A stretch of DNA of 9,780 nt, taken from the IMG/VR virus record IMGVR_UViG_2700989535_000004, positions 1 through 9,780 of that record. One strand, written 5' to 3'. Numbering within the stretch: the stretch's first letter is position 1; every line of letters begins with the position of its first letter. This DNA is from a virus. Lineage: Duplodnaviria; Heunggongvirae; Uroviricota; Caudoviricetes. This document shows, piece by piece, positions 1 through 9,780 of this stretch. Position numbers and translations under genes: made by a program. Below the pieces are notes generated by a model, which searched no databases, was not told the DNA's origin, and was given only the letters and a program-made list of their open reading frames with translations.

Positions 1-564
1 TCAACGACTGCGCTTAGCGTGGCGCTCCCAGTTTTCTTGCTTCGCCTGCGCCGTTTTACGTAGTGCGACGTAACACGCCCCGCTGCCGCCATGATGCGGT
101 AGCGCAGTGCAATATGCCTGAACATCATCAAATTCGGTCAGCCAGCGCGCCACATAGCTGCGGACAATATTGGCATGCGATTTATCATCCCGTCCTTTGC
201 CATGAATAATCAGCACGTTACGCAAACCATCAGCCATGGCTTGTTGAATGAAACTGAACATCATTTTGCGGCACTCTTCCACCGGCTGGCGCAAAAGATT
301 CAGGCTCGCCTGTTGCGGATATTTACCACTGCGCAGCTTATCCAGCACCCCATGTTGCAACCCTTCCCGCCGAAACTCCAGCGGCTGACTTAGTGGGATG
401 ATGTCGAGAAATCCGGTGGTGAGGAAATTATCAAGCTGCAGCGTGTCGATACGCTGCGGCGCACGTTGGTTACGCGTTGGATGCCAGTGGACATCGGTAG
501 CACGTTTCAGCGGCTGGACATCTTCCATGGCGTCAAGAAACAGCGATTTGTCGTCAAGGTTCAT
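1..564 (-). CDS. smrA: Smr-domain protein (SmrA/YdaL-like putative DNA endonuclease); host gene flanking the island
   Basis: Complete 187-aa ORF on the minus strand with stop at 1-3. Smr-type core motif (..NVLIIHGKGRDDKS..). The 187-aa length and the MNLDDKSLFLDAMEDV N-terminus match my recollection of E. coli SmrA rather than SmrB; not verified by search. Confidence 0.7.
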   Translation of the reverse strand: MNLDDKSLFLDAMEDVQPLKRATDVHWHPTRNQRAPQRIDTLQLDNFLTTGFLDIIPLSQPLEFRREGLQHGVLDKLRSGKYPQQASLNLLRQPVEECRKMMFSFIQQAMADGLRNVLIIHGKGRDDKSHANIVRSYVARWLTEFDDVQAYCTALPHHGGSGACYVALRKTAQAKQENWERHAKRSR

Positions 565-782
565 GTTACATCCTCCCGCAATTAAGAGCGCGATATGATA
601 ACCAGACCGGGTCGGTCCAACAACGTATTACCCAAAATTCCAGTAATAAGTTCCAAATATTGCCGATATTTTAAGCAAAATGCTTATGCATGATTATTCA
701 TTCACGATATTTATAATTAAATGCGCATAACTTATTGAATTTAACCAACAAACATCGCTGCAAATAACGTTAAAAATCGCAA

Positions 783-806
783 ATTAACTACACCATTAAC
801 TACACC
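783..806. repeat. Perfect tandem direct repeat, 2 x 12 bp (ATTAACTACACC)
   Basis: Read directly: attaactacacc at 783-794 and again at 795-806, in the AT-rich intergenic region upstream of the Smr gene. Confidence 0.9.
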
Positions 807-1296
807 GTTCGGTGCACTGTATGCAACAATGCGGAACAAATAGACACAAGCGACGGGCTATACCGTTATCATTTTCCGGCTATCCGCCATGAAGCTGGTG
901 GATGATCACGGATAAACCGTTATGGAAGTCCCCATATCGGCATCATGCCCACCAGCGAGATTAGTTATCTGGTTGCTGATGGGAGGCTGACGAACCTCGA
1001 TGCTAGGGTGCGCAAAACTAGTGAGACCTTTTTTCTCTGCAACAGGCCCATAATTCGCGTTTTCTTTGTCTGCCGTAAGGTGGGGGATTTTTGGCGGATC
1101 CAGCAATGGCGCGGATTTTGTGATTTTTTATAGATAGACCTCATCTATCAATCCCGTGCACACCTTCCCAAAAAAAGTTTTCGAACCTGCGGCGATGTGA
1201 ACAAGGGTAGGCGGGCGGTCCCATAAGCAATGAGGTGTAGGGATTTCTATCCCCCTGGGGGTATTAAACACCACCCGATTTAAATACCGTCTTTTT

Positions 1297-1332
1297 TGTC
1301 ACTGTGTGTCACTCTCCGTCACGGTATGTCAC
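1297..1332. repeat. Four (T/C)GTCAC motifs at exact 10-bp phasing; candidate protein-binding array at the left island edge
   Basis: tgtcac at 1297-1302, tgtcac at 1307-1312, cgtcac at 1317-1322, tgtcac at 1327-1332. The array lies immediately downstream of the last island ORF (stop at 1339). Confidence 0.8.
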
Positions 1333-1338
1333 CACAAG

Positions 1339-1620
1339 TTAACGTCGTAACCGTTCCGGCTTCTTCCAGTGGTAAGTAATTTTTTCTTTCTCTTGGTACA
1401 TCTGCACGCGGCGACGGTACGACAACATCTCCAGAACTCTGGTGCGTATGTTGCGCATATCCACGCCGTTAAGCTCGATACCGTCACGGCGCATCACCTC
1501 AGCAACAACACGCACATAATTTTCAGCGGTCACGCTGTCCGGCTGCGTGGCCTGTTCGTCAGCCTGCTGGCTGATTCCGGTAACGCGGCGGATTAATCGC
1601 AGTATTTCGGCTTCTGTCAT
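1339..1620 (-). CDS. Hypothetical protein (93 aa), last gene of the packaging operon
   Basis: ATG at 1618-1620 preceded by TGGGGGCACA (G-rich SD, 4-nt spacer); 73-bp gap after the Nu1-like gene. No recognisable similarity to lambda gpA, gpW or gpFII. Confidence 0.5.
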   Translation of the reverse strand: MTEAEILRLIRRVTGISQQADEQATQPDSVTAENYVRVVAEVMRRDGIELNGVDMRNIRTRVLEMLSYRRRVQMYQEKEKITYHWKKPERLRR

Positions 1621-1693
1621 TGTGCCCCCATCGCTCTGATAGCCTGGTGTCGTCAGGTCCTTCCTGGAATTATGGCCCGTTACGGGGCGGCGG

Positions 1694-2236
1694 TTACTCG
1701 CCTTTGTTCTGTAGCAACTTCTCAGGCGCGCTTCCGGTAGTTTCCATCAGGTAATCAGCCAGTATCTGTGGCAGGTTTTCGTCAAGTCTTGCACATGCGT
1801 TACATGCTTTGGCTATTTCCCTTTTTAGTTCATCCAGCATATACGGCCTTATATCGGGAAAGCGCCTTTGCATTGTGAGCGGGAGGCTGTCCATGATTGA
1901 TGAAATCTGACTCGCTAGTTTTGAAATCGCGTAGATGCAAAACTTTGTATCAATCACCTCGCCGCGTTCGCGCTCGTTTTTAAGTTCCTGCGCTTCCGCC
2001 TGGGCCGTCATTAATCTGATTCTTACGCGTAAAAGTTCATCATCATCAATCTCGCCTTTGTCGTTTGTAAGCTGGTTAATTGCATTGTTAACCCTATTGT
2101 CTATCACGCTAGCAACATCATAAAACGCCTCACGGCCTTTACGCTCAACGGGAGTTACTCCCCACTTGTCGAACGCTGTCGCACTTACGCGGCAGCTTTG
2201 CGCCATAGTTTTTTTGTTCATCAGGTGCGATTTCAT
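1694..2236 (-). CDS. Terminase small subunit, lambda Nu1 family
   Basis: Translation aligns along its length with lambda Nu1 as recalled (e.g. RLMTAQAEAQELKNERERGEVIDTKFCIYAISKLASQISSIMDSLPLTMQRRFP vs lambda RLTRAQADAQELKNARDSAEVVETAFCTFVLSRIAGEIASILDGLPLSVQRRFP). About 180 aa like Nu1. Start taken at ATG 2234-2236 (SD GTGGGGA, 5-nt spacer); ATG 2219-2221 (MNKK.., aligning with lambda MEVNKK) and GTG 2246-2248 are alternatives. Sits 134 bp downstream of cosN. Confidence 0.85.
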   Translation of the reverse strand: MKSHLMNKKTMAQSCRVSATAFDKWGVTPVERKGREAFYDVASVIDNRVNNAINQLTNDKGEIDDDELLRVRIRLMTAQAEAQELKNERERGEVIDTKFCIYAISKLASQISSIMDSLPLTMQRRFPDIRPYMLDELKREIAKACNACARLDENLPQILADYLMETTGSAPEKLLQNKGE

Positions 2237-2261
2237 CAATATCCCCACTTAGTTAAGGTTT

Positions 2262-2420
2262 CAGGTTGGTGTGTTGGTGTTATCTTTCCCTTTTTATTCA
2301 TAGAGATAGAGCGAAAAACAAAACCACCACCACCAACCCGAAAAGGCTCATAAATAGCGAAAATCCGCAAGGTCGCCGCCCCGTAGCCTGCCGGATCGCC
2401 GGAAAGGACCCGCCAGCCAG
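2262..2420 (-). other. Lambda-type cos site: cosQ-like flank (2382-2420), cosN (2370-2381) and a divergent cosB-like region (2262-2369)
   Basis: The minus strand reads CTGGCTGGCGGGTCCTTTCCGGCGATCCGGCAGGCTACG|GGGCGGCGACCT|TGCGGATTTTCGCTATTTATGA. The 12-nt block is the lambda cohesive end, and both flanks match the lambda right-end and left-end sequences as I recall them with only a few substitutions. After TATTTATGA the sequence diverges; the cosB-like region carries GGTTGGTGTGTTGGTG (2265-2280) and its inverted partner CCACCACCACCAACC (2324-2338) around an AT-rich core. Confidence 0.8.
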
Positions 2421-2437
2421 AACGGGCCCTAATTTCA

Positions 2438-2821
2438 TCAACCAATCAGCTTATAGCGACCATCCCGTGCATTGCGACGTACACGCTCAATCTTGAGGCA
2501 TAGCGCCGCATCTGGCTTTTTGGGGACAGGTACGCGGCAATATTCAGAAGCTCGAGGAATATTGTTTATCCAGTCGATCACTTCACTTAAATACCAGGCT
2601 TTACGCCCTTCCGTAACCTGTACGCGTTCGGGGAACTCTCCACGAGCCTCAAGGTTTAGCAATGTGCGACGGCTAAGGGTAGTAAGTTCCATCACCTGAT
2701 TCATATCAACAAGGCGTTCACTTAAACGCATTTTGTCAGCAATAGCCTTTAATTCCTCTACTGCTGGATCCGGATACATCATTTCGGCAATTGGCTTAAG
2801 GTCATTGTAATGATTCTGCAT
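2438..2821 (-). CDS. AlpA/Xis-family (HTH_17-like) DNA-binding protein, 127 aa
   Basis: ATG at 2819-2821 with SD AAGGGGGA (4-nt spacer). Central segment MELTTLSRRTLLNLEARGEFPERVQVTEGRKAWYLSEVIDWI has the AlpA/excisionase-type HTH pattern, with about 40 extra residues at the N-terminus and about 40 at the C-terminus. The stop lies directly next to cosQ. Confidence 0.6.
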   Translation of the reverse strand: MQNHYNDLKPIAEMMYPDPAVEELKAIADKMRLSERLVDMNQVMELTTLSRRTLLNLEARGEFPERVQVTEGRKAWYLSEVIDWINNIPRASEYCRVPVPKKPDAALCLKIERVRRNARDGRYKLIG

Positions 2822-2832
2822 TGTATCCCCCT

Positions 2833-3174
2833 TTACACACGAGCCAGCGGCTGAACAGAAATACCTGAGCCAACAAACGCGGCAACCTTTGCCGACAGTT
2901 CTCTTACAGACTCAGGCCAGTTCAGAGCATCAACATTTAAAACACCTGTCTTATAAACCTGTGCCTGTGTTTTTTTCGCTGTGTCGATTTGTACAGCGGA
3001 AACATAAACCGCTTTGCCTGCGCTCGTTCCATCCCATACCACTAGCGCACCAGTTGCATCTTCCTGCATCAGTGGCGTAAACGCAGGTATTACCCCTTTA
3101 TTGGCTGAAAATATCCCCAGCGTAGTAACCAGTGCTTCAGTGCCAGACATGAGTTCAGTGTAATGAGTAGCCAT
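2833..3174 (-). CDS. Head decoration protein, lambda gpD family
   Basis: 113 aa. Shares with lambda gpD as recalled: TPLM, LV(V/A)WDGT, YK(T/S)G, WPE and AF(V/A)G(S/T)(G/A)IS in the same order and spacing. ATG at 3172-3174 with SD AAGGGGGAG; starts 9 nt after the capsid gene stop. Confidence 0.85.
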   Translation of the reverse strand: MATHYTELMSGTEALVTTLGIFSANKGVIPAFTPLMQEDATGALVVWDGTSAGKAVYVSAVQIDTAKKTQAQVYKTGVLNVDALNWPESVRELSAKVAAFVGSGISVQPLARV

Positions 3175-3183
3175 TGCTCCCCC

Positions 3184-4230
3184 TTAGCCAATGCGAACGG
3201 TAACAAAACGATTGATGCGGGCCGGTATTGGCTGTGGTGCAGAGTGCGTTTGTACGTACTCAATAGCCGGATCACCAGGCACAATATAGTTTTTCGGTGC
3301 AAGTTCGGCTTTAGTCAGCCCCATTCGGGTTAGCTCCGGATCCTGAATACCGCCATAGGCGACAATCCCCTGAAGAGCCGTATTGCCAAGCACCATCAAA
3401 TCAGGATCAAGGAAATGTTTTTCAGTTCCGTCCTCGTCGGTATAACGTCCGCTGTAAACAACAATCGCAACATCGCCCATATACCCTTTAAAACTCACCG
3501 AATCACCAAGGTCTTTAAGGGCCGTTTCCAGTTCGGAATTAGAACCACGGCGGGTATCCAGAGCCTCTTTTATCGCTCTGAATGAACGGTATTTCTTCCA
3601 TACATTACCGCCCATAATGATGATATTAGTGACGCCCTCACTAAATTCTGCGTAGCTCTCAATATCATCATTTGGATCAAAAGTTTCTTTATCCTTACCT
3701 GACCACTCAGCACCGCCAGACTGCGTGATAATATTTTGTGGTTTTATATTCCAGTCCAGTTCATAACGTTCAATACCATCGCCCTCAATGATATTTTTCC
3801 CCGTTGTGATTGCCTGAACAGCAAGCCATTCAATACGTGCACGTATAGCTTTAGCCTGATTTACAATCGCCTGTTTAACTTTAATATTACGCGCCCCAAA
3901 AGCATTGTATTGTTCAGGTGATACACCAGCAGGGCGCACAGCTAACTTATTTGGATCAATGCTGCTTTTCGGTTTCATATAGCCAGGGCGAATTGTTTTT
4001 GATTCGTATCCCTCATCTCGTGAAACTTTACTGCCCACCATAGGAGAGCAAAACGCCGCGATCGGGATATTTGGATCGTCGATCGTATCAAGAATAATGT
4101 CTCTCGATTCAAACATTACCGAGCGAGTGAAAAACAAACTGGTAAACAACGCATTTAATTTTTTTTGCACATCTTCAGCATTAGCCATCTGCACAAGCTG
4201 TGTAGGCGAATATAAATCAACCATACTCAT
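3184..4230 (-). CDS. Major capsid protein, lambda gpE family
   Basis: Strong colinear similarity to lambda gpE as recalled (ITQSGGAEWSGKDKETFDPNDDIESYA.., DTRRGSNSELETALKDLG, GDVAIVVYSG, MVLGNT, with an MSM start like gpE). 348 aa from ATG 4228-4230 (SD AAAGAGG directly upstream); ATG 4222-4224 has better SD spacing. The six-frame ORF runs on to 4311 but that extension has no gpE counterpart. Confidence 0.9.
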   Translation of the reverse strand: MSMVDLYSPTQLVQMANAEDVQKKLNALFTSLFFTRSVMFESRDIILDTIDDPNIPIAAFCSPMVGSKVSRDEGYESKTIRPGYMKPKSSIDPNKLAVRPAGVSPEQYNAFGARNIKVKQAIVNQAKAIRARIEWLAVQAITTGKNIIEGDGIERYELDWNIKPQNIITQSGGAEWSGKDKETFDPNDDIESYAEFSEGVTNIIIMGGNVWKKYRSFRAIKEALDTRRGSNSELETALKDLGDSVSFKGYMGDVAIVVYSGRYTDEDGTEKHFLDPDLMVLGNTALQGIVAYGGIQDPELTRMGLTKAELAPKNYIVPGDPAIEYVQTHSAPQPIPARINRFVTVRIG

Positions 4231-4393
4231 CCTCTTTACATTCATTACAAATAATTGTGAATATATTCTATTACCGATGTCTGCTATGCGAATACATGCA
4301 ACCAAGTGCAATGTTGTATAAAATATGCCGTGACAACTTCAGTGCTGATAATTCGTGTTAATGTATTTACTTCCTTTGGTCGGGATTTATGTA

Positions 4394-4435
4394 GCATGCC
4401 GGAAAATCTATTTTTTTCCGGCATCTTTTTGTTTG
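4394..4435 (+). terminator. Stem-loop (11-bp stem) with a T-tract on the plus strand; terminator-like element between the SSB and capsid genes
   Basis: ATGCCGGAAAA (4396-4406) pairs with TTTTCCGGCAT (4414-4424), followed by CTTTTTGTTTG. The U-tract geometry is on the plus strand; on the coding minus strand the hairpin is preceded by an A-tract instead. Lies 16 bp beyond the SSB stop. Confidence 0.4.
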
Positions 4436-4441
4436 CAGAAT

Positions 4442-4864
4442 TTAAAACGGTATATTATCGCCGTACGGATCATCATTCCCCGACTGTTGTTTTGCCCTGT
4501 TCAGTGCGTCAGTGGCCTGCCCCTGCTGACCTTTTTTGCCGCCCGGTCGCGCCGTTCGCGCACTGATTACGCTGTCTGCGATAACCTGCCAGCCCCGCCG
4601 CGTTTCGCCGTTCTGGCCTGTCCACTGGCTTACCTGCATGTTACCCGCCACGCTCAGGAGTTCACCCTTGCGGTGCTTTGCCAGTGCTTCGGCCTGTCTG
4701 CCAAACGCCAGGACGGATAACCACATCGTCGCCGTTCCGTCATCTGCCTGGCTGCACGGAAGTGGGACCGCCATACTCGCCATCGTCATTTGTGTACCCT
4801 TGCTGGTGGTCTTTAACTGCGGGTCAGCCACCAGCCGCCCGTAAGCCGCTATCTGTGCTGTCAT
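4442..4864 (-). CDS. ssb: Single-stranded DNA-binding protein (SSB)
   Basis: 140 aa with an OB-fold-like N-terminal region (IAAYGRLVADPQ.., WLSVLAFGRQAEALAKHRKGELLSVAGNMQVSQWTGQNGETRRGWQVIADSV), a Gly/Gln-rich linker and an acidic tail ending DNIPF (compare SSB DDDIPF). Its ATG (4862-4864) overlaps the upstream stop as ATGA. Confidence 0.85.
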   Translation of the reverse strand: MTAQIAAYGRLVADPQLKTTSKGTQMTMASMAVPLPCSQADDGTATMWLSVLAFGRQAEALAKHRKGELLSVAGNMQVSQWTGQNGETRRGWQVIADSVISARTARPGGKKGQQGQATDALNRAKQQSGNDDPYGDNIPF

Positions 4865-5112
4865 GCTGTCTGCTCTCCGGTTTTAACGTTGATGGTTGTC
4901 ACCTGTTCCGCTTCGGCAATCTCCCGTTCTGTCAGTGTGGCAAAATTTGCCGCCGCCGTGGTCATGAATGCGCTTATCAGTTCGGGATGCGCTTTCGCGT
5001 ATCCTTCTCCGGCGTGGCGGTCTATCGTTCTGATTGCCACCTTTAAGGCGTGCTCTGTCATGTCTAATGCGCGATATTTTGGTGCTGTTTTATCTCTGCT
5101 TTTTCTGGTCAT
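4861..5112 (-). CDS. Hypothetical protein (83 aa), translationally coupled to ssb
   Basis: ATG at 5110-5112 directly abutting the iteron region; G-rich sequence upstream; stop overlaps the ssb start. No family recognised. Confidence 0.5.
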   Translation of the reverse strand: MTRKSRDKTAPKYRALDMTEHALKVAIRTIDRHAGEGYAKAHPELISAFMTTAAANFATLTEREIAEAEQVTTINVKTGEQTA

Positions 5113-5113
5113 T

Positions 5114-5316
5114 CCCCACTACCCCCCACTTTTTCGCCTCACTTTTTAAGCTCCCCACATGATTTCCAACCTTGTTTTTTTGTGATTCTAATATGTTGTT
5201 TTTCAATGTGTTTTTTATTCCTCACTTTTGAGCCTATATACAGATTGAAAAGTGAGGGGCGCGGTTGCTTTTTGTTCAGTTCCTGCTATCCCCTCACTTT
5301 TGCGCCTCACTTTTTA
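5114..5316. repeat. Iteron array flanking an AT-rich core: putative replication origin
   Basis: CC(C/T)CACTTTT(T) copies at 5124-5134, 5137-5147, 5219-5229, 5292-5301 and 5304-5315; partial copies at 5114-5120 and 5153-5160; one inverted copy (AAAAGTGAGGGG, 5247-5258). A T-rich core lies at 5161-5217. The array starts at the stop codon of the replicase gene. Confidence 0.65.
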
Positions 5317-6729
5317 CAGTGGGCGCACATCATCACCGTCAATAGCGATAACGCCGTCTCTTTCCAGCTTGTACAGCCAGCGCCGGAAGTTTTTCATCTC
5401 ATACCCCAGCTTTTTCATATCATCGCGCAACAACGGGATAGTGCATTTATCGCCGCGCTGTGTGCGTGACCGGATACAGCCCCATAGTGCGGCGTGATTC
5501 TCCGTCTTGTTTCCGGCCTCCTCGATGCGCTCCAGTTCAACGGGTGGGCGCGGCTTATCCACAACCACCAGCGACGTGATTAACTCCTTGTCAGCGTCGG
5601 TAAAAAGCTCCACCACACGTAAATCATATGCAGCCTCTTTCAGTTCCTCCGCGTCCTTCATTTTGGTGCAGGAGATAACCAGGGCCTCACTGTCCGCGCC
5701 TTCGCGGCGGATCCGGTACTCAGCGTCCAGAGATGCACGAAATGCACTGGAACCACGCGCCCCTTTTGTTTCATCCTTGCCGGAATGGTGAACCACCAGC
5801 ACCGTGGCCCCTGTGCGTCGTTTCAGTTCGTCACATCCACGGATAAACGCCCCCATATCCCGCGCGTCATTTTCATCATTACCGCCAAAGCAACGCGCCA
5901 GCGTATCCAGAATAATCATGCGTACCGGTTTACCCGTTTCCCGTTCAACCTGGCGGGATGCGATAACCATTTCATCAACATCAAACTGGGCTGCAGGAAA
6001 AATCGGGCGGGTTACCAGGTACAGATTTTTCACCCGTTCATCATTAACGATTTCCCATGCCTTGATACGGCGGGGGACACCAATGCCACCTTCACCGACA
6101 ACATACATCACCGAACCATGCGCCACCCTGCGACCTCCCCAGTGGCGACCCGTGGCAACATGACACGCCCAGGAACACGCGAGGAACGATTTATAGGAAC
6201 CGCTCGCGCCGTATGTGCTGCACAATGAATTAGCCGGAATCACGCCCTTAACGACATAATCAAGCTGTGTGTCGTACCCTGCAGATCCAATGCTCATTGG
6301 TAGCGTGGTTTTTCGCTGACTGTATTGCTCGTCAGTAAGTATTTCCCCGCGCTCTGCCTGTTCGCGGATCCGTTGCAGGTAGTCGTGCCAGTTCTCCAGC
6401 TTCTGACTGTGCATTCCCTCAGGGTAATAATTCGCATCCCGTACACCTGCCGCCGCCAGCTTTTGCCCGATGGCATTAATATTTGACGGCTTGATGTGGC
6501 CTGCCTTGTACAGTCGGACACAATAGCGACCATCGTCGATAATTTTCAGGCCTGCCAGTTCGTCAAGCTGGCTGTCTCCCAGCCATACAGGCGGAACATT
6601 GTCGCCAGCAAGTCGCCCGTCCTGCTCCTGCCATTGTTTCGCGTGCGCCCAGGCATCACTACCCGCAAAAATAATGACTTCGGTCATTTTGTCGTAAGGC
6701 TGTTTTTTTAAGTTCGGTGCGCTTTTCAT
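5314..6729 (-). CDS. Replication initiator, primase/helicase type, with RepA-like AAA_25 ATPase core
   Basis: 471 aa. Walker A-like GASGSYKSFLA (Tyr where Gly is usual), Walker B-like RMIILDT and a VLVVHHSGKDE motif typical of RepA/AAA_25 helicases. The N-terminal 170 aa may be a degenerate Toprim (EVIIFAGSDAW..LKIIDDG) and the C-terminal 100 aa a DNA-binding domain. ATG at 6727-6729 (SD AGGGG, 6-nt spacer) overlaps the upstream stop as ATGA. Confidence 0.8.
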   Translation of the reverse strand: MKSAPNLKKQPYDKMTEVIIFAGSDAWAHAKQWQEQDGRLAGDNVPPVWLGDSQLDELAGLKIIDDGRYCVRLYKAGHIKPSNINAIGQKLAAAGVRDANYYPEGMHSQKLENWHDYLQRIREQAERGEILTDEQYSQRKTTLPMSIGSAGYDTQLDYVVKGVIPANSLCSTYGASGSYKSFLACSWACHVATGRHWGGRRVAHGSVMYVVGEGGIGVPRRIKAWEIVNDERVKNLYLVTRPIFPAAQFDVDEMVIASRQVERETGKPVRMIILDTLARCFGGNDENDARDMGAFIRGCDELKRRTGATVLVVHHSGKDETKGARGSSAFRASLDAEYRIRREGADSEALVISCTKMKDAEELKEAAYDLRVVELFTDADKELITSLVVVDKPRPPVELERIEEAGNKTENHAALWGCIRSRTQRGDKCTIPLLRDDMKKLGYEMKNFRRWLYKLERDGVIAIDGDDVRPL

Positions 6730-7025
6730 TTCTTGCCCCTGAATCCGTTAATCATGGTTTTCAGCTTCTGGATGTTTGCCCGTGCCCTGGCGTTGCTGGT
6801 GGGCACGTTATGCGGCGCGGTCTGTACCAGAGAAAAATCACACCGGAACTGATAAACAGGCATCACGCAATCATATTCGTAACCTTCACGGCGGTAGATT
6901 ACGCGCCGTTCTTCCACGCCCTTAATCATTACCGTGCCGCCGTACTGGTCGCGGTAAATATCACCGCGCGTAAATTTAGGGTGAGTGTTGCCACTGGCAG
7001 TTAAGCCAGAATATTTAAGTTTCAT
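6726..7025 (-). CDS. Hypothetical protein (99 aa)
   Basis: ATG at 7023-7025 with SD GGAGA upstream; stop overlaps the replicase start. Tight operon context; no family recognised. Confidence 0.5.
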   Translation of the reverse strand: MKLKYSGLTASGNTHPKFTRGDIYRDQYGGTVMIKGVEERRVIYRREGYEYDCVMPVYQFRCDFSLVQTAPHNVPTSNARARANIQKLKTMINGFRGKK

Positions 7026-7030
7026 TATTT

Positions 7031-7264
7031 TTATTCTCCGGTGTGCTGTTCTTTATATCTGTCGTGCAATAGATCTATTTCTTGCAGTTCCATTATTACA
7101 GGCTCAAGAAGCGTTATTAATGCCGTGGCAATTCTTGATTTTTGTTTGTCGCATTCATTGTCGCCAAGTGTTTCAAGCCATATGCGCAATATTTCCAGCA
7201 TGTTTTCACTGTGAGAAAGTGCAAGAAATGCGCGGTCTATTGTTTCGTGGTAAATATCACGCAT
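7031..7264 (-). CDS. Hypothetical protein (77 aa)
   Basis: ATG at 7262-7264 with SD GAGGA (about 8-nt spacer); 5-nt gap to the next gene. No family recognised. Confidence 0.45.
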   Translation of the reverse strand: MRDIYHETIDRAFLALSHSENMLEILRIWLETLGDNECDKQKSRIATALITLLEPVIMELQEIDLLHDRYKEQHTGE

Positions 7265-7490
7265 GGCTTACATCCTCAGGAAATTTTCTTCTGTAACGCG
7301 CCTCTGCCACATATTCCGCATAATCGGCGGCGATATTCAGTACATCAAGCCCCGTTGATTTATATTCTCTCGTGGAAAGTAAGAAAAAAGCCGCTCTAAT
7401 AAGCTCTGGCATTGACGAAAGCGCATCAGCCGCATCATCAGGAACGCCGGAAAATTCCTGTTTCAGGGAATTAAAACGATCATCACGCAT
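7257..7490 (-). CDS. Hypothetical protein (77 aa); possibly the C-terminal half of a frameshifted gene
   Basis: ATG at 7488-7490 lies 2 nt downstream of a G9 tract on the coding strand, which could serve as a G-rich SD. The frame is closed 6 codons upstream of the ATG. See finding on the homopolymer. Confidence 0.4.
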   Translation of the reverse strand: MRDDRFNSLKQEFSGVPDDAADALSSMPELIRAAFFLLSTREYKSTGLDVLNIAADYAEYVAEARYRRKFPEDVSHA

Positions 7491-7723
7491 AACCCCCCCC
7501 CATTTTCACAATCAGCAATCAGGATGGCTTTGGCCTCATTCAGCGCCATATCCGCACTAAGTTGCATAACCGCCAGCGAATGAGGAACGAAAGCCCCGGC
7601 ATATTCTGTTTCACTGGTAGCGTGCTTATGCGCCCTGTCCGCGATAACAGAAATATCAATCAGCGCATCAATCAGTGTTTTGATTGCTTCGGCGGCTGCG
7701 TCCGGACGGGTGTTATTGCACAT
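7463..7723 (-). CDS. Hypothetical protein (86 aa); possibly the N-terminal half of a frameshifted gene
   Basis: ATG at 7721-7723 with SD AGGGGGT (5-nt spacer). The reading frame passes through the G9 tract (encoding GGG) and stops 28 nt later, overlapping the next ORF. Confidence 0.4.
   Translation of the reverse strand: MCNNTRPDAAAEAIKTLIDALIDISVIADRAHKHATSETEYAGAFVPHSLAVMQLSADMALNEAKAILIADCENGGGLCVMIVLIP
7493..7501 (-). repeat. Homopolymeric tract: C9 on the plus strand, G9 on the coding strand
   Basis: Read directly (aaCCCCCCCCCatttt). Sits exactly at the junction of two overlapping out-of-frame ORFs. Confidence 0.95.
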
Positions 7724-7919
7724 GGTGCACCCCCTGACGAATACGGGCGGCGAATACCATCACGCAGCCAGCCGGTGATTGCTGACGGGCTTCCTGTTCG
7801 CTGGTGGCCTCAATGGTAATCACGCGCGGTTGTGCCGTACTCAGGGCGATAAAACGCCAGATGTATTTATTCAGGTTGTGCGAGTCCCGCCCTTGCGGGT
7901 GTATGGTATGATTTCTCAT
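7713..7919 (-). CDS. Hypothetical protein (68 aa), first gene of the minus-strand operon
   Basis: ATG at 7917-7919 with SD GAGG (5-nt spacer). The six-frame ORF extends to a TTG at 8009, but that extension would cover the leader hairpin and has no RBS. Confidence 0.4.
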   Translation of the reverse strand: MRNHTIHPQGRDSHNLNKYIWRFIALSTAQPRVITIEATSEQEARQQSPAGCVMVFAARIRQGVHHVQ

Positions 7920-8017
7920 AGCAGCCTCGATAATCTTGCTATCGTTGGTGGTTAGACGCCCCGTATGTGTTTCCGGCACTGCGGGGCGTTGCTCTTTGTA
8001 TTTCAACAATTCTTTTG

Positions 8018-8096
8018 GTGTGTTTCATGTTATGAGCGCATGAAACACACGTCAAGGCTTTTTGTATTTCTTTTTTTGTGTATACTGAAACACACC
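8018..8096. promoter_or_regulatory. Divergent promoter/operator region: perfect 12-bp inverted repeat overlapping a minus-strand sigma70-like promoter, plus a third half-site at the plus-strand promoter
   Basis: GTGTGTTTCATG (8018-8029), 9-bp spacer, CATGAAACACAC (8039-8050). Minus-strand promoter: -35 TTGACG (revcomp of 8050-8055), 17-bp spacer, -10 TAACAT (revcomp of 8027-8032). Third half-site TGAAACACAC at 8086-8095 just downstream of a plus-strand -10-like TATACT (8081-8086). A fourth GTGTTTC lies at 7967-7973 inside a leader hairpin (ACGCCCCG 7956-7963 / CGGGGCGT 7982-7989). Confidence 0.5.
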
Positions 8097-8116
8097 GATG
8101 ATTAGGAGTTTCAGAA

Positions 8117-8422
8117 ATGGCAACGGCTAACAAAAACGCAAAATCACAACTGACAACTGTCAGAGTCCCACTAGATGTTATGCAAGGGATGGAATCCGTT
8201 AAGCTGGACGGCGAAAGCAATGCCGGATTTATCGTAACCGCCATGCGCGGAGAAATAGCCCGCCGCCAAGCAGAAGGCAGCGGAGAAAATCCCCTTGTGT
8301 CGTCACTGGATGCCCTGGCTAAGGTCGAACAAATCGGCATCAAAGCAGCGGAAGAAATCGGGCAGCTTGTCACCGTTGCACGCGAAGAACTCCAGCGTCG
8401 CAAGACCAAAGAACCAGAGTAA
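8117..8422 (+). CDS. Putative ribbon-helix-helix (RHH) DNA-binding protein, 101 aa; candidate island repressor
   Basis: Strong SD (TAGGAG, 8-nt spacer). N-terminal segment QLTTVRVPLDVMQGMESVKLDGESNAGFIVTAMRGEIARR fits a beta-strand/helix/helix RHH pattern. Operator-like repeats lie just upstream and an intrinsic terminator downstream on the same strand. Composition is A/E/K-rich, unlike the Ser/Arg/Cys-rich opposite-strand reading. Confidence 0.6.
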   Translation: MATANKNAKSQLTTVRVPLDVMQGMESVKLDGESNAGFIVTAMRGEIARRQAEGSGENPLVSSLDALAKVEQIGIKAAEEIGQLVTVAREELQRRKTKEPE

Positions 8423-8479
8423 TCACCATCAGCGCCGTGGTGTAAGGTATTACGGCGCATTGCTATGCAGGACAACACA

Positions 8480-8653
8480 ATGACCGATAAAGAATTGACC
8501 AAAACATTATCACCGGCACGGAAAAGACGGCGCAGAAAGATAGAGCATGAATCAGAAAGATTCGCGCCATGTGCTTTTGCTCTTGAGAAATTCCTTAAAG
8601 AGCACAGGAAAAAGCTCTCGTTGCAAACCTTGGAACGAACCAAATCTGACTGA
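8480..8653 (+). CDS. Small basic protein (57 aa), co-transcribed with the RHH gene
   Basis: ATG at 8480 with AGGA 7 nt upstream; the ORF-track start at 8465 has no SD. Contains an RKRRRRK block. Followed 80 bp later by an intrinsic terminator. Confidence 0.4.
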   Translation: MTDKELTKTLSPARKRRRRKIEHESERFAPCAFALEKFLKEHRKKLSLQTLERTKSD

Positions 8654-8732
8654 TCACATTGCCCACCAGCCGCAAATGTGGCATTGTTGGTGATGCTCAT
8701 GCGTTGGGGATAACGTGTAGCTTGTGTCGAGG

Positions 8733-8761
8733 GGCCACCGTAGCGGGTGGCCTTTGTTTTG
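8733..8761 (+). terminator. Rho-independent terminator of the plus-strand cassette
   Basis: GGCCACC (8733-8739), loop gtagcg, GGTGGCC (8746-8752), then TTTGTTTTG. The U-tract is on the plus strand only. Confidence 0.6.
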
Positions 8762-8763
8762 CC

Positions 8764-9129
8764 TGTTATCCGGCAATTGTGGCGCTTCGCCACACGGTTG
8801 ATATAATCCCACTGCTCAGATTCATTTTTTGCGCAGTAGGTTAATTGTTCACAAAGGCGCTCCGGCAACGGGGCGCTTTTTGTTTTTATTAGTTTGTAGA
8901 AACCTGACTCAGAGATAATGCTCATATTCTGATTGCCGTCAGGGGTGTAAGTTAAATTTACTCCCTTTTTATCATCAAACATCTGCAACGCTCTGGCGTT
9001 AACAATATTGGTTTCACTCCCTCCAGTAAGGCCGGAAATAACCGGAATAATTTCGGCAAAATTTTGCAGATTCTGTTTTTCAGGACGAACGAAGCCCCGC
9101 CCTTGTTCGGGAGAATATCCAGTATTCAT
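8764..9129 (-). CDS. Hypothetical protein with a possible Bro-N-like motif; 3' boundary undefined, possibly a truncated remnant
   Basis: ATG at 9127-9129 with only a weak SD. The segment PDGNQNMSIISESGFYKLIKTKSAP resembles the Bro-N core (GGKQ.MT.INESGLYSLI..S.KP), but the N-terminal Bro-N signature is not evident. The ORF formally continues without a stop to 7939, across the plus-strand terminator, cassette and promoter region; I list only the 5' part, ended at an arbitrary in-frame position. Confidence 0.3.
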
Positions 9130-9181
9130 GGTTAGATCTCTGTATTAGTGGATGGGTGGCGGCTGTGTGCCGCCAGCCTGA

Positions 9182-9370
9182 TTAGTGAACTGCCTCGCAG
9201 CTTTCCTTCCATGCCAGAACTTCGGATAAAGACCAGCCAACGGAACGACCGCCGAGCTTACGCCGTGATGGGAATTGTCCGGTTTTTTCCAGGCGGTACC
9301 GACATGAACGGCTCAGGCCTGTAAGTTGCTGACATTCTTTTTCACGTATAAAGCGATCTGTGCTTAACAC
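9182..9370 (-). CDS. alpA: AlpA-family transcriptional regulator / excision-associated HTH protein (62 aa)
   Basis: DRFIREKECQQLTGLSRSCRYRLEKTGQFPSRRKLGGRSVGWSLSEVLAWKE matches the AlpA/Vis-type HTH. Start taken at GTG 9368-9370, preceded by SD AAGGGGGA (3-nt spacer); the 118-aa ORF-track start at 9538 has no comparable RBS. Confidence 0.75.
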   Translation of the reverse strand: MLSTDRFIREKECQQLTGLSRSCRYRLEKTGQFPSRRKLGGRSVGWSLSEVLAWKESCEAVH

Positions 9371-9403
9371 AATTCCCCCTTTGATATTTCTTAAAGAGTT
9401 ATT

Positions 9404-9450
9404 TGGTGTCCTATTGTGTTGTGGTGCGTCGGATTGTGTCAGGGTGTTTA
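9404..9450. repeat. Five (T/G)GTGT(C/T)-type motifs at 10-bp phasing upstream of alpA
   Basis: TGGTGTC 9404-9410, TTGTGTT 9414-9420, GGTGCGTC 9423-9430, TTGTGTC 9434-9440, GGTGTTT 9444-9450. Confidence 0.7.
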
Positions 9451-9664
9451 TGGAATGGCAAACACTGGCGGCGGTCATTTTACAGAAGTGTGGTAATGAG
9501 AATAAAAACTCTTTTAATTCATTGTGGTGCAAAGGCATAAAATTCTGTTTTTACGCCTTTTTTACATGTTTTTAAGAGTGATTCGCCAATGTACAAAAAG
9601 CCAGTAAAACGACTGAAAATCAACTTTTTAGGGTGTCAGTCAGATGTTAATCAAGTTTGTTCCA

Positions 9665-9715
9665 GATTGTTCGCCGTTGTTCGTCGTGGTGTCTCGTTGT
9701 TTCACGTTGTGTCAG
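9665..9715. repeat. Five tandem 10-bp units ending in (C)GTTGT, with TTGTGTCAG
   Basis: Motifs (G/C)(A/G)T(T/G)GT at 9665, 9675, 9685, 9695 and 9705. The 9-mer TTGTGTCAG occurs at 9707-9715 and at 9434-9442; GGTGTCAG at 9632-9639. Confidence 0.7.
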
Positions 9716-9780
9716 TTCTAAAAAATCGCAAAAAAAATTATATTTCTCTGGCTATTGGCAGTGTGGTTACGTTTTTGTGA

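Follow-up and report, generated by a model that had tools for sequence, protein, structure and literature searches.

A ribbon-helix-helix gene with operator-like repeats, antisense to a long open reading frame, as a probable maintenance operon of Gram-negative phage-inducible chromosomal islands

INTRODUCTION

Gram-negative phage-inducible chromosomal islands (PICIs) share a plan of four zones, in which int and alpA are followed by a 'Bro zone', replication genes and late genes (PMC10111431). AlpA is their activator and is itself activated by the helper; its over-expression alone induces the island EcCICFT073, and the global repressor of these elements has been called 'unclear' (PMC6092414). 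Here, we analyze a candidate for such a repressor, encoded in a plus-strand cassette of two genes on a 9,780-nt stretch of DNA (IMG/VR record IMGVR_UViG_2700989535_000004, positions 1 to 9,780; hereafter the window). The first gene, ORF 1, encodes a ribbon-helix-helix (RHH) protein of 101 amino acids (aa) and the second, ORF 2, a basic protein of 57 aa. Both lie antisense to a long minus-strand open reading frame (ORF) that ends close to the Icd-like gene (icd).

A parallel to this arrangement is found in the immunity region of P4. There, eta is translated in a manner coupled to the alpA homologue, and this translation keeps transcripts that start at the regulated promoter upstream from terminating (PMC10111431, summarising Forti et al. 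1999). Transcripts from the constitutive internal promoter are terminated via the CI immunity RNA, which is encoded within eta (PMC10111431). We found no paper, in the literature on PICI repressors, RHH proteins or antisense ORFs, that describes the arrangement analyzed here, and the 'Bro zone' paper (PMC10111431) makes no mention of an opposite-strand RHH gene or of an antisense arrangement. The components are known, both as RHH repressors with operator arrays and as P4 eta/kil; their combination appears to be new.

Our analysis revealed purifying selection on both plus-strand genes, a predicted RHH fold, repeats that covary with the RHH type, an open antisense ORF, and a protein family shared by the Icd-like protein and P4 Kil. 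We read the cassette as what is probably the maintenance (immunity) operon of an EcCICFT073-type Gram-negative PICI, in which an RHH repressor acting on the icd promoter is combined with cargo and with an eta-like antisense ORF.

RESULTS

The cassette begins with a conserved RHH gene

The window matches, at 100% identity, an island in the chromosome of E. coli KSC1031, located between smrA and abgR, in which every annotated gene but one lies on the minus strand (RefSeq). The exception is ORF 1, annotated as WP_000179579.1, 'YlcI/YnfO family protein', the sole plus-strand gene called in the island. The original prediction, made from the sequence of the window, was of a plus-strand two-gene cassette with its own terminator embedded in a minus-strand island, and the ORFs, Shine–Dalgarno (SD) sequences and hairpin all lie where it had put them (Table 1). 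It had also described the N-terminus of the first protein as RHH-like. This description is borne out by NCBIfam NF041551 (YlcI/YnfO), which matches residues 9–50 with 63.2 bits against a cut-off of 30, and by the predicted monomer model, in which an N-terminal β-strand is followed by two helices, the RHH fold. Pfam DUF3950 was absent from the matches of the protein at E ≤ 1. We found no paper characterising the function of YlcI, YnfO or DUF3950; the family is annotated in databases yet uncharacterised.

Table 1. Positions of the cassette, the long antisense ORF, and the flanking genes and signals in the window
Feature	Position	Strand	Details
Icd-like gene	7713–7919	−	68 aa; SD GAGG; first gene of the operon predicted to be RHH-repressed
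Long read-through ORF	7939–9129	−	396 codons; eta-like; starts 52 nt past the alpA stop
End of long ORF	7941–7939	−	TAG, 19 nt short of the icd ATG
icd-leader stem-loop	7956–7989	−	GC-rich, conserved, ACGCCCCG...CGGGGCGU; also the 3′ end of the long ORF
Candidate operator array	7997–8094		9-bp sites TGAAACACA / TGTGTTTCA
Exact copies of TGAAACACA	8019–8027 (copy 1, inverted); 8041–8049 (copy 2); 8086–8094 (copy 3)
One-mismatch operator copies	7997–8005; 8063–8071
Predicted sigma-70 icd/replication promoter	8027–8055	−	−35 TTGACG (8055–8050); 17-nt spacer; −10 TAACAT (8032–8027)
Cassette −10	8081–8086	+	TATACT, conserved, preceded by TGTG and a T-tract; predicted promoter
RHH gene (ORF 1)	8117–8422	+	101 aa; SD AGGAG 8104–8108, 8 nt 5′ of the ATG
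Spacer	8423–8479	+	Constant 57 nt = 19 codons; contains SD AGGA 8469–8472
57-aa gene (ORF 2)	8480–8653	+	SD AGGA 8469–8472, 7 nt 5′ of the ATG; RKRRRRK = residues 14–20
Terminator-like hairpin 1	8730–8763	+	GGCCACC/GGTGGCC, then T-run; also given as 8730–8755; marks the end of the plus-strand unit
Terminator-like hairpin 2	8853–8890	+	AAAGGCGCTCC..GGGGCGCTTTTTGTTTTT; also given as 8853–8880; kept in many relatives
alpA	9182–9370	−	62 aa in RefSeq; published activator of such islands (PMC6092414)

Full-length homologues of ORF 1, with 65–90% identity, occur in at least 10 enterobacterial genera, including Yersinia, Xenorhabdus, Photorhabdus, Klebsiella, Citrobacter, Enterobacter, Serratia, Edwardsiella and Cronobacter. 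Among 23 distinct gene sequences, dN/dS for ORF 1 is 0.17, the lowest value of the six frames. The wobble sites that the gene shares with the long minus-strand ORF tell the same story: 53 changes are synonymous in the plus frame and non-synonymous in the minus frame, compared to 24 of the reverse kind.

In the protein of the window, the RHH domain (residues ~10–52) is followed by a helical insert of 42 aa (~53–94) and by a conserved basic tail, RRKTKEPE. Genes for a 101-aa, a 59-aa or a clearly Arc-like 57-aa RHH protein occupy the same position in related islands, and all of these forms precede the same 57-nt spacer. The 101-aa forms contain the 42-residue module AEGS...REELQ (8273–8398 in the window), which is cleanly missing from the 59-aa forms and may serve in oligomerisation or as a sensor. 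In a profile comparison with PDB sequences, residues 45–86 weakly matched Hef (1x2i), which is helix-hairpin-helix-like (E = 0.0055). We treat this match as a lead only, since AlphaFold2 (AF2) models the segment as one long helix.

About 25% of loci have in-frame stops in the spacer, and these carry an unannotated Arc-like RHH gene. At the locus of E. coli O55:H7 CB9615 (5825–5998, 6056–6229), RefSeq calls only an opposite-strand 'Icd-like pseudogene'. The stretch contains an uncalled yet intact Arc-like 57-aa RHH gene, which tblastn had missed, together with the 57-nt spacer, the 57-aa ORF and, upstream, GGTAATTACC palindromes.

Operator-like repeats covary with the RHH type

A candidate operator array with a spacing of 22–23 bp lies in the ~200 bp that separate the RHH gene from the divergent icd gene. 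It includes three exact copies of TGAAACACA, and the window has no others. At one mismatch or less, the window as a whole contains 13 matches versus 3.0 expected. Each of the exact copies is placed at a predicted promoter element. Copy 1 lies on the −10 of the predicted icd promoter, and copy 2 adjoins GTCAAG, the −35 of that promoter. Copy 3 follows the −10 of the cassette, which reads TATAAT in Xenorhabdus and Photorhabdus.

We compared the array among relatives and distinguished at least 12 types of RHH β-strand, each with its own 9–11-bp motif repeated three to six times at 22–23 bp. The β-strand QLTTVRVP of the window goes with TGAAACACA; other pairs are QSLTARIP with GTCTTACAC, QQLNARFP with GAATCGCAC, QALKARVP with GTGGCCCAC, KKLEARVP with TGTCAGCCAC, QTVAARVP with GTGTTGAACAC, KQISIRIP with TGAATCACA and the Arc-like PPYQMRLP with GGTAATTACC. 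All motif copies in an island switch as a set with the β-strand residues, and the scaffold around them (GTCAAG of the −35, T-tract, TATAMT of the −10, SD) is fixed. Where the β-strand is kept, so is the motif: TGAAACACA is retained with QLTTVRVP in E. coli, Xenorhabdus and Photorhabdus and with QLFTVRVP, which is nearly the same, in Serratia. Between the sites, the sequence drifts among these genera. The Icd protein is at least 91% identical among loci carrying many RHH types, and hence Icd is not the specificity determinant.

Taken at the level of sequence comparison, this covariation is the signature of a repressor and its operators, with putative sites on both the icd/replication promoter and the repressor's own. 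We infer that the RHH protein binds these sites and represses from them.

The cassette also has a defined end. Downstream of ORF 2, a plus-strand terminator-like hairpin with a T-run is present in 89/93 copies, in the form of at least five unrelated sequences, which indicates conserved function rather than conserved sequence. With the conservation of its genes, these predicted signals mark the cassette as a genuine transcription unit. On the other side of the array, the CACTGCGGGGCGTTG motif of the icd-leader stem-loop is found in nearly all related islands, whatever their RHH type. The 108-nt icd leader that includes this stem-loop (7915–8022) has a folding z of −2.3, and the element may be regulatory or terminating, like P4 t_imm or seqA.

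A variable slot follows the RHH gene

ORF 2 encodes a basic, helical protein of a 'PCxFALExFLK' family. It is unannotated here, where RefSeq leaves 8423–9181 blank, and annotated in other genomes. A 62-aa version starting at 8465 is less likely, because PHROG 21027 and most homologues begin at MTDKEL. The ORF is intact in 90/90 copies (29 distinct nucleotide sequences), and indels within it all preserve the frame. The core, EHESERFAPCAFALEKFLKE, hardly varies, with 8 mostly conservative substitutions in the 29 sequences alongside many synonymous changes. As for ORF 1, dN/dS is the lowest of the six frames (0.35–0.37). The wobble-site test for ORF 2 alone gives 6 versus 7 overall, and the conserved core alone favours the plus frame. 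The constant length of the spacer, 19 codons, places both plus-strand genes in one frame and thus in the same wobble-on-wobble register with the minus-strand ORF.

The gene is confined to Escherichia, Shigella and close relatives. PHROG 21027, to which no function is assigned, is the sole family match of its product, and tblastn against phages yielded none. An HMM search with the family against 1.8 billion representatives returned nine proteins, of which one was spurious (a repeat protein) and none informative. AF2 models the protein with low confidence (predicted local distance difference test score, 68) as a charged hairpin of two helices.

The RHH gene occurs without the 57-aa ORF in Xenorhabdus, Photorhabdus, Serratia, Enterobacter and Klebsiella (including a Klebsiella element), and 28/79 E. 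coli-type loci lack a close homologue of it. In those 28 loci, other content fills the slot 55–58 nt past the RHH stop. Some encode divergent proteins of 61–75 aa with a PxxFALE(D)FL motif (hhalign probability 84%, E = 8e-6); others encode something unrelated, namely a 50-aa transmembrane (TM) peptide, a 176-aa TM protein or a 118-aa SWIM zinc-finger protein. Because the RHH gene stands alone or with other cargo, the 57-aa protein is not an obligate RHH partner. From its distribution and conservation, we read it as probable cargo co-expressed with the repressor, and not as a toxin. No other part of the region is as widely shared as the segment 8384–8671 (RHH 3′ end, spacer and 57-aa ORF), which is ~91–92% identical in many genomes with differing flanks. 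Seen in this comparison, it behaves as a putative recombination module with borders in the RHH tail and just past the small ORF.

The slot and the operator array bear on what the RHH protein does. If the cassette were an autoregulated cargo operon of the Aca-like kind, RHH would limit its own operon, which delivers a small protein (anti-defence, exclusion or helper-directed), and the overlap with icd would be incidental. The variable slot past RHH, with its FALExFL-family, TM and SWIM proteins, resembles that of moron and acr-aca loci, and one operator does sit at the cassette's own start site. However, two of the three strongest sites are at the −35 and −10 of the divergent promoter rather than at the cassette promoter, cargo-free RHH genes of other genera keep the same operator layout over the icd promoter, and a divergent RHH gene is linked to icd, ~200 nt upstream, in 79/80 Icd-anchored loci. 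We therefore consider this explanation unlikely.

A helper-sensing master repressor, in the Stl/Rpr sense, would silence the whole island, and a helper-phage protein would bind the RHH protein, perhaps via the 42-aa insert. The original prediction had seen the RHH gene as positioned like a master repressor. The position is upheld by the operator-like repeats over the divergent promoter and their covariation with the β-strand, and it matches that in Gram-positive PICIs, where the gene is divergent from the replication operon (PMC6092414). The diversity of specificity types, and the extra conserved helical domain that the long form has and the 59-aa forms lack, also speak for it. But many islands have a 57–59-aa RHH only, with no extra domain, and the protein is an RHH protein rather than a helix-turn-helix (HTH) protein and shows no similarity to Stl. 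Moreover, helper-activated AlpA is the published inducer and is sufficient alone (PMC6092414). Stl is thus not the best analogy; rather than being the helper-sensing switch, RHH more likely guards an internal promoter, much as P4 immunity acts on P_LE transcripts. We regard the helper-sensing explanation as quite improbable.

A type II toxin–antitoxin or abortive-infection pair, with RHH as antitoxin and the 57-aa protein as toxin, was the other possibility raised at the outset, and it now seems very unlikely. The gene order, RHH then small protein, would fit. The nearest structural neighbours of the RHH domain are antitoxins, the protein matches Pfam PSK_trans_fac (VapB-type) weakly, below cut-off (E = 0.02), and the basic RHH tail is kept across otherwise swapped RHH domains. 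Against this, the 57-aa protein had no match in Pfam, NCBIfam or PADLOC and none to a toxin or defence family (PADLOC had no matches for any of the four proteins submitted), and its predicted charged helical hairpin has no TM segment. The genes are separated by a 57-nt spacer with its own SD instead of the usual overlap or tight coupling. Two differing RHH tails (RRKAKExE and QQRGIEPKG) go with the same small ORF, which is missing beside the RHH gene in five other genera and in about one-third of the E. coli relatives.

A long minus-strand frame is kept open across the cassette

The long ORF runs antisense to both terminators, both plus-strand genes, the spacer, the promoters and the operators. 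Its frame is open across the cassette in 90/90 related loci, for 232–607 codons. It is the frame in which the wobble positions of both strands coincide. We counted stops over a 654-nt segment in 71 distinct sequences (~20 clusters) and found a mean of 0.42 in the long frame, compared to 5–15 in the other five; none of 300 mononucleotide shuffles per segment left the long frame open. A wobble T followed by a CAN codon is exactly the combination that would make an antisense stop, and 19 representative RHH genes contain no such T (0/119, versus 21% elsewhere).

These counts bear on whether the frame might be open by compositional accident, simply because the genes opposite it are purine-rich. Stops are indeed scarcest in the wobble-on-wobble antisense frame, and for a single RHH gene the chance of an open frame given its amino-acid sequence is 0.04–0.87. 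However, the frame is also open through non-coding spacers, promoters and terminators in ~20 sequence clusters. It extends to ~800 codons in two loci where the cassette is tandemly duplicated. The lambdoid control, DLP12 ylcI of K-12, has no long antisense ORF. Together with the shuffles and the avoidance of T before CAN, these observations make an accident extremely unlikely, and on comparative grounds we conclude that the openness of the long ORF is not accidental. In the duplicated loci (L105 and L106, ~1549–3963), a FALExFL-family ORF is followed by the RHH gene, and L106 adds a second small ORF; the ~800-codon frame ends in an Icd-like domain, and the minus-strand gene has Pfam Phage_ASH.

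The minus translation is unrelated between RHH types. Considered with the 53 versus 24 wobble changes, this means that the plus-strand proteins hold the amino-acid constraint and that the minus frame is mainly kept open. That the minus ORF is the sole real gene (a Bro-network protein) and the plus ORFs are its shadows is barely credible, even though it is open in all relatives and PGAP or other annotators sometimes call it a gene or pseudogene, since the plus frames have the lowest dN/dS of six and prevail in the wobble test, ORF 1 matches an RHH family and fold, SDs, terminators and operators are arranged around the plus genes, and the minus translation is not conserved between RHH types. The long minus ORF had initially been set against the cassette as a competing gene; the comparison shows instead that both are maintained, and that the minus ORF resembles P4 eta/kil.

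The long ORF shares both the frame and the stop of icd in 62/90 loci. In the window and 25 other loci it is in a different frame and stops 19 nt before the icd ATG. Minus-strand RNA contains more C than G in the long-ORF stretch, unlike the rest of the island (GC skew), a bias consistent with Rho loading on this RNA in its untranslated state.

Residues 44–90 of the long ORF show a weak likeness to Bro-N/Ant (PHROG anti-repressor matches). The N-terminal ~120 residues (8760–9129) have the appearance of a Bro-N/Ant protein that has been truncated; the homologous segment of strain B-2207 is a Bro-N pseudogene in the PGAP annotation, and other islands have full-length BRO-N or AntA/AntB genes in that place.

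The Icd-like protein and the parallel with P4

The Icd-like protein of the window matched phrog_1743 (5.3e-23), and so did residues 133–197 of P4 Eta, its Kil part (1.2e-20). The parallel extends to the layout. Both regions contain an AlpA-family gene (vis in P4) and a long ORF ending in a Kil/Icd-type protein, followed by replication genes or primase. In both, an internal promoter lies 5′ of kil/icd, inside the long ORF or at its end, so that the predicted icd promoter is placed like P_LE. Nesting of the long ORF with icd, like that of eta with kil, is seen in 62/90 relatives; in the window the ORF stops short of icd and is not nested.

The regions differ in what confers, or is proposed to confer, immunity. 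In P4, a processed RNA, CI, targets the nascent transcript, and no antisense protein gene is annotated inside eta; in the PICI, the slot holds an oppositely oriented operon for a putative protein repressor, with candidate operators. We searched Rfam for C4, isrK or another credible RNA in the window at gathering thresholds, and in 7600–9780 at E ≤ 10, and found terminator-like fragments only.

The Icd-like protein matched a single 'phage' record, a Klebsiella satellite-like element with the same antisense RHH design. In Escherichia phage vB_KppS-Ant (LR881103), a 16.5-kb 'induced prophage' built in the same way, an annotated 324-aa ORF (2790–3764) ends in an Icd-like domain; an unannotated 67-aa YlcI-type RHH gene (3194–3397) lies antisense in this ORF, and no 57-aa ORF is present.

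Island context

The RefSeq annotation of the identical island follows the layout of a Gram-negative PICI (EcCICFT073 type, 'Bro zone'). The minus-strand order begins with int (past the right end of the window), alpA, the unannotated gap 8423–9181, the Icd-like gene and three small hypotheticals. It continues with DUF4222, a RepA-type helicase, a hypothetical protein, a single-stranded DNA-binding protein, the major capsid protein, a head decoration protein, an HTH protein and the small terminase. The capsid and decoration genes match those noted for EcCICFT073 (PMC6092414). Related stretches are present in 1,794/5,426 complete E. coli genomes. A tRNA scan of the window found none, and a DNA search of a phage collection with 8040–8900 gave zero matches.

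Transcription from the alpA promoter runs convergent into the cassette. The alpA frame is open for 118 codons (9182–9538), of which RefSeq takes the last 62 only; the Pfam AlpA domain covers residues 61–110 of the 118-codon version.

DISCUSSION

We favour the reading of the cassette as a maintenance operon, and its parts could work together as follows. The RHH protein would bind the array of 9-bp TGAAACACA sites in the ~200 bp between its gene and icd. Occupancy of the two sites at the −35 and −10 would shut the leftward icd promoter, which, when unrepressed, would drive the Kil-like Icd and the replication genes. The site at the start of the repressor transcript would provide autoregulation, and the 57-aa gene, carried on that transcript, would be cargo of the quiescent state. 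The long ORF may be kept open so that ribosomes trail RNA polymerase during AlpA-activated transcription from upstream, as proposed by analogy with P4 eta. Its translation would block Rho-dependent and hairpin-dependent termination. The induced transcript could then cross the cassette and extend to icd and the replication genes despite the repressor, and convergent transcription would silence the cassette.

A bolder version, which we offer more tentatively and as somewhat short of probable, is that the locus forms a convergent toggle, in which RHH would shut the internal icd/replication promoter during quiescence and translated read-through, once the helper has triggered AlpA expression, would override and silence the repressor operon. 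Here, the repressor operon would lie antisense in a frame conserved only for translation, RHH would be the 'missing' repressor of Gram-negative PICIs, and the shared register and constant spacer would be adaptations to double coding. By analogy with P4, we propose that RHH may be a protein replacement of RNA immunity, guarding the internal promoter.

Several points weigh against the maintenance-operon reading. The covariation of motif and RHH could come in part from physical linkage, the two being adjacent and recombining as one block. The plus-strand −10 of the cassette is conserved, yet it has no convincing −35, and a consensus scan did not report the promoter. The RHH protein of the window has Leu where >90% of homologues have His (H19), although this allele is still common (a cluster of 306 sequences). 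A direct BLASTP comparison of P4 Eta with the Icd-like protein is marginal (E = 0.012), and we infer the anti-termination role of the long ORF from the P4 analogy. The minus product has the look of antisense junk, with an abundance of Ser, Leu, Arg and Cys, which fits a frame 'kept open only' and does not prove it. Finally, AlpA over-expression induces EcCICFT073 without removal of any repressor (PMC6092414), and hence RHH is not the sole gate.

Other regulatory systems share elements of this design. The immI region of P22 (Arc, Mnt, ant) likewise has small RHH repressors with swapped specificities and closely spaced divergent promoters; some PICI relatives are recognisably Arc-like, and Bro-N/Ant antirepressor genes occur in the same zone. 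The PICI operators, however, are not on an ant promoter. The predicted target operon starts with icd and replication genes, and the cassette is antisense to a long ORF. In lambda, the maintenance repressor is co-transcribed with accessory genes (cI-rexA-rexB) that are expressed in the quiescent state. The likeness, a repressor with a variable cargo slot, is one of logic only, with no homology. Stl/Rpr of Gram-positive PICIs (SaPIs) is divergent from the satellite's replication operon, with the control region between, as here (PMC6092414). It differs in being an HTH protein without sequence relationship to RHH; the PICI is induced via AlpA, with no sign of helper-protein binding.

YlcI (DLP12) and YnfO (Qin), the DUF3950 proteins of K-12 cryptic prophages, belong to the same family (NF041551), and K-12 YlcI closely resembles one short PICI form. 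Unlike the PICI genes, DLP12 ylcI has neither a long antisense ORF nor a 57-aa partner. A gap of ~390 bp (cos region) separates the gene (L107, 4252–4446) from nohD, the divergently transcribed gene for the small terminase, an arrangement suggesting that the lambdoid members act at another promoter.

Islands of this kind are common in E. coli, and they mobilise virulence and defence genes. The locus provides a concrete candidate for a PICI repressor, with predicted operators and natural specificity variants. For antisense double coding in bacteria, it is also unusually long and well replicated (232 to ~800 codons, ~20 clusters), and annotation pipelines miss parts of it: 8423–9181 is empty here, and the CB9615 stretch is marked as a pseudogene (RefSeq). 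The comparison links PICI regulation to P4 eta/kil and suggests that RNA-based and protein-based immunity modules have been exchanged at one position. The RHH protein may be the repressor that Gram-negative satellites were believed to be without.

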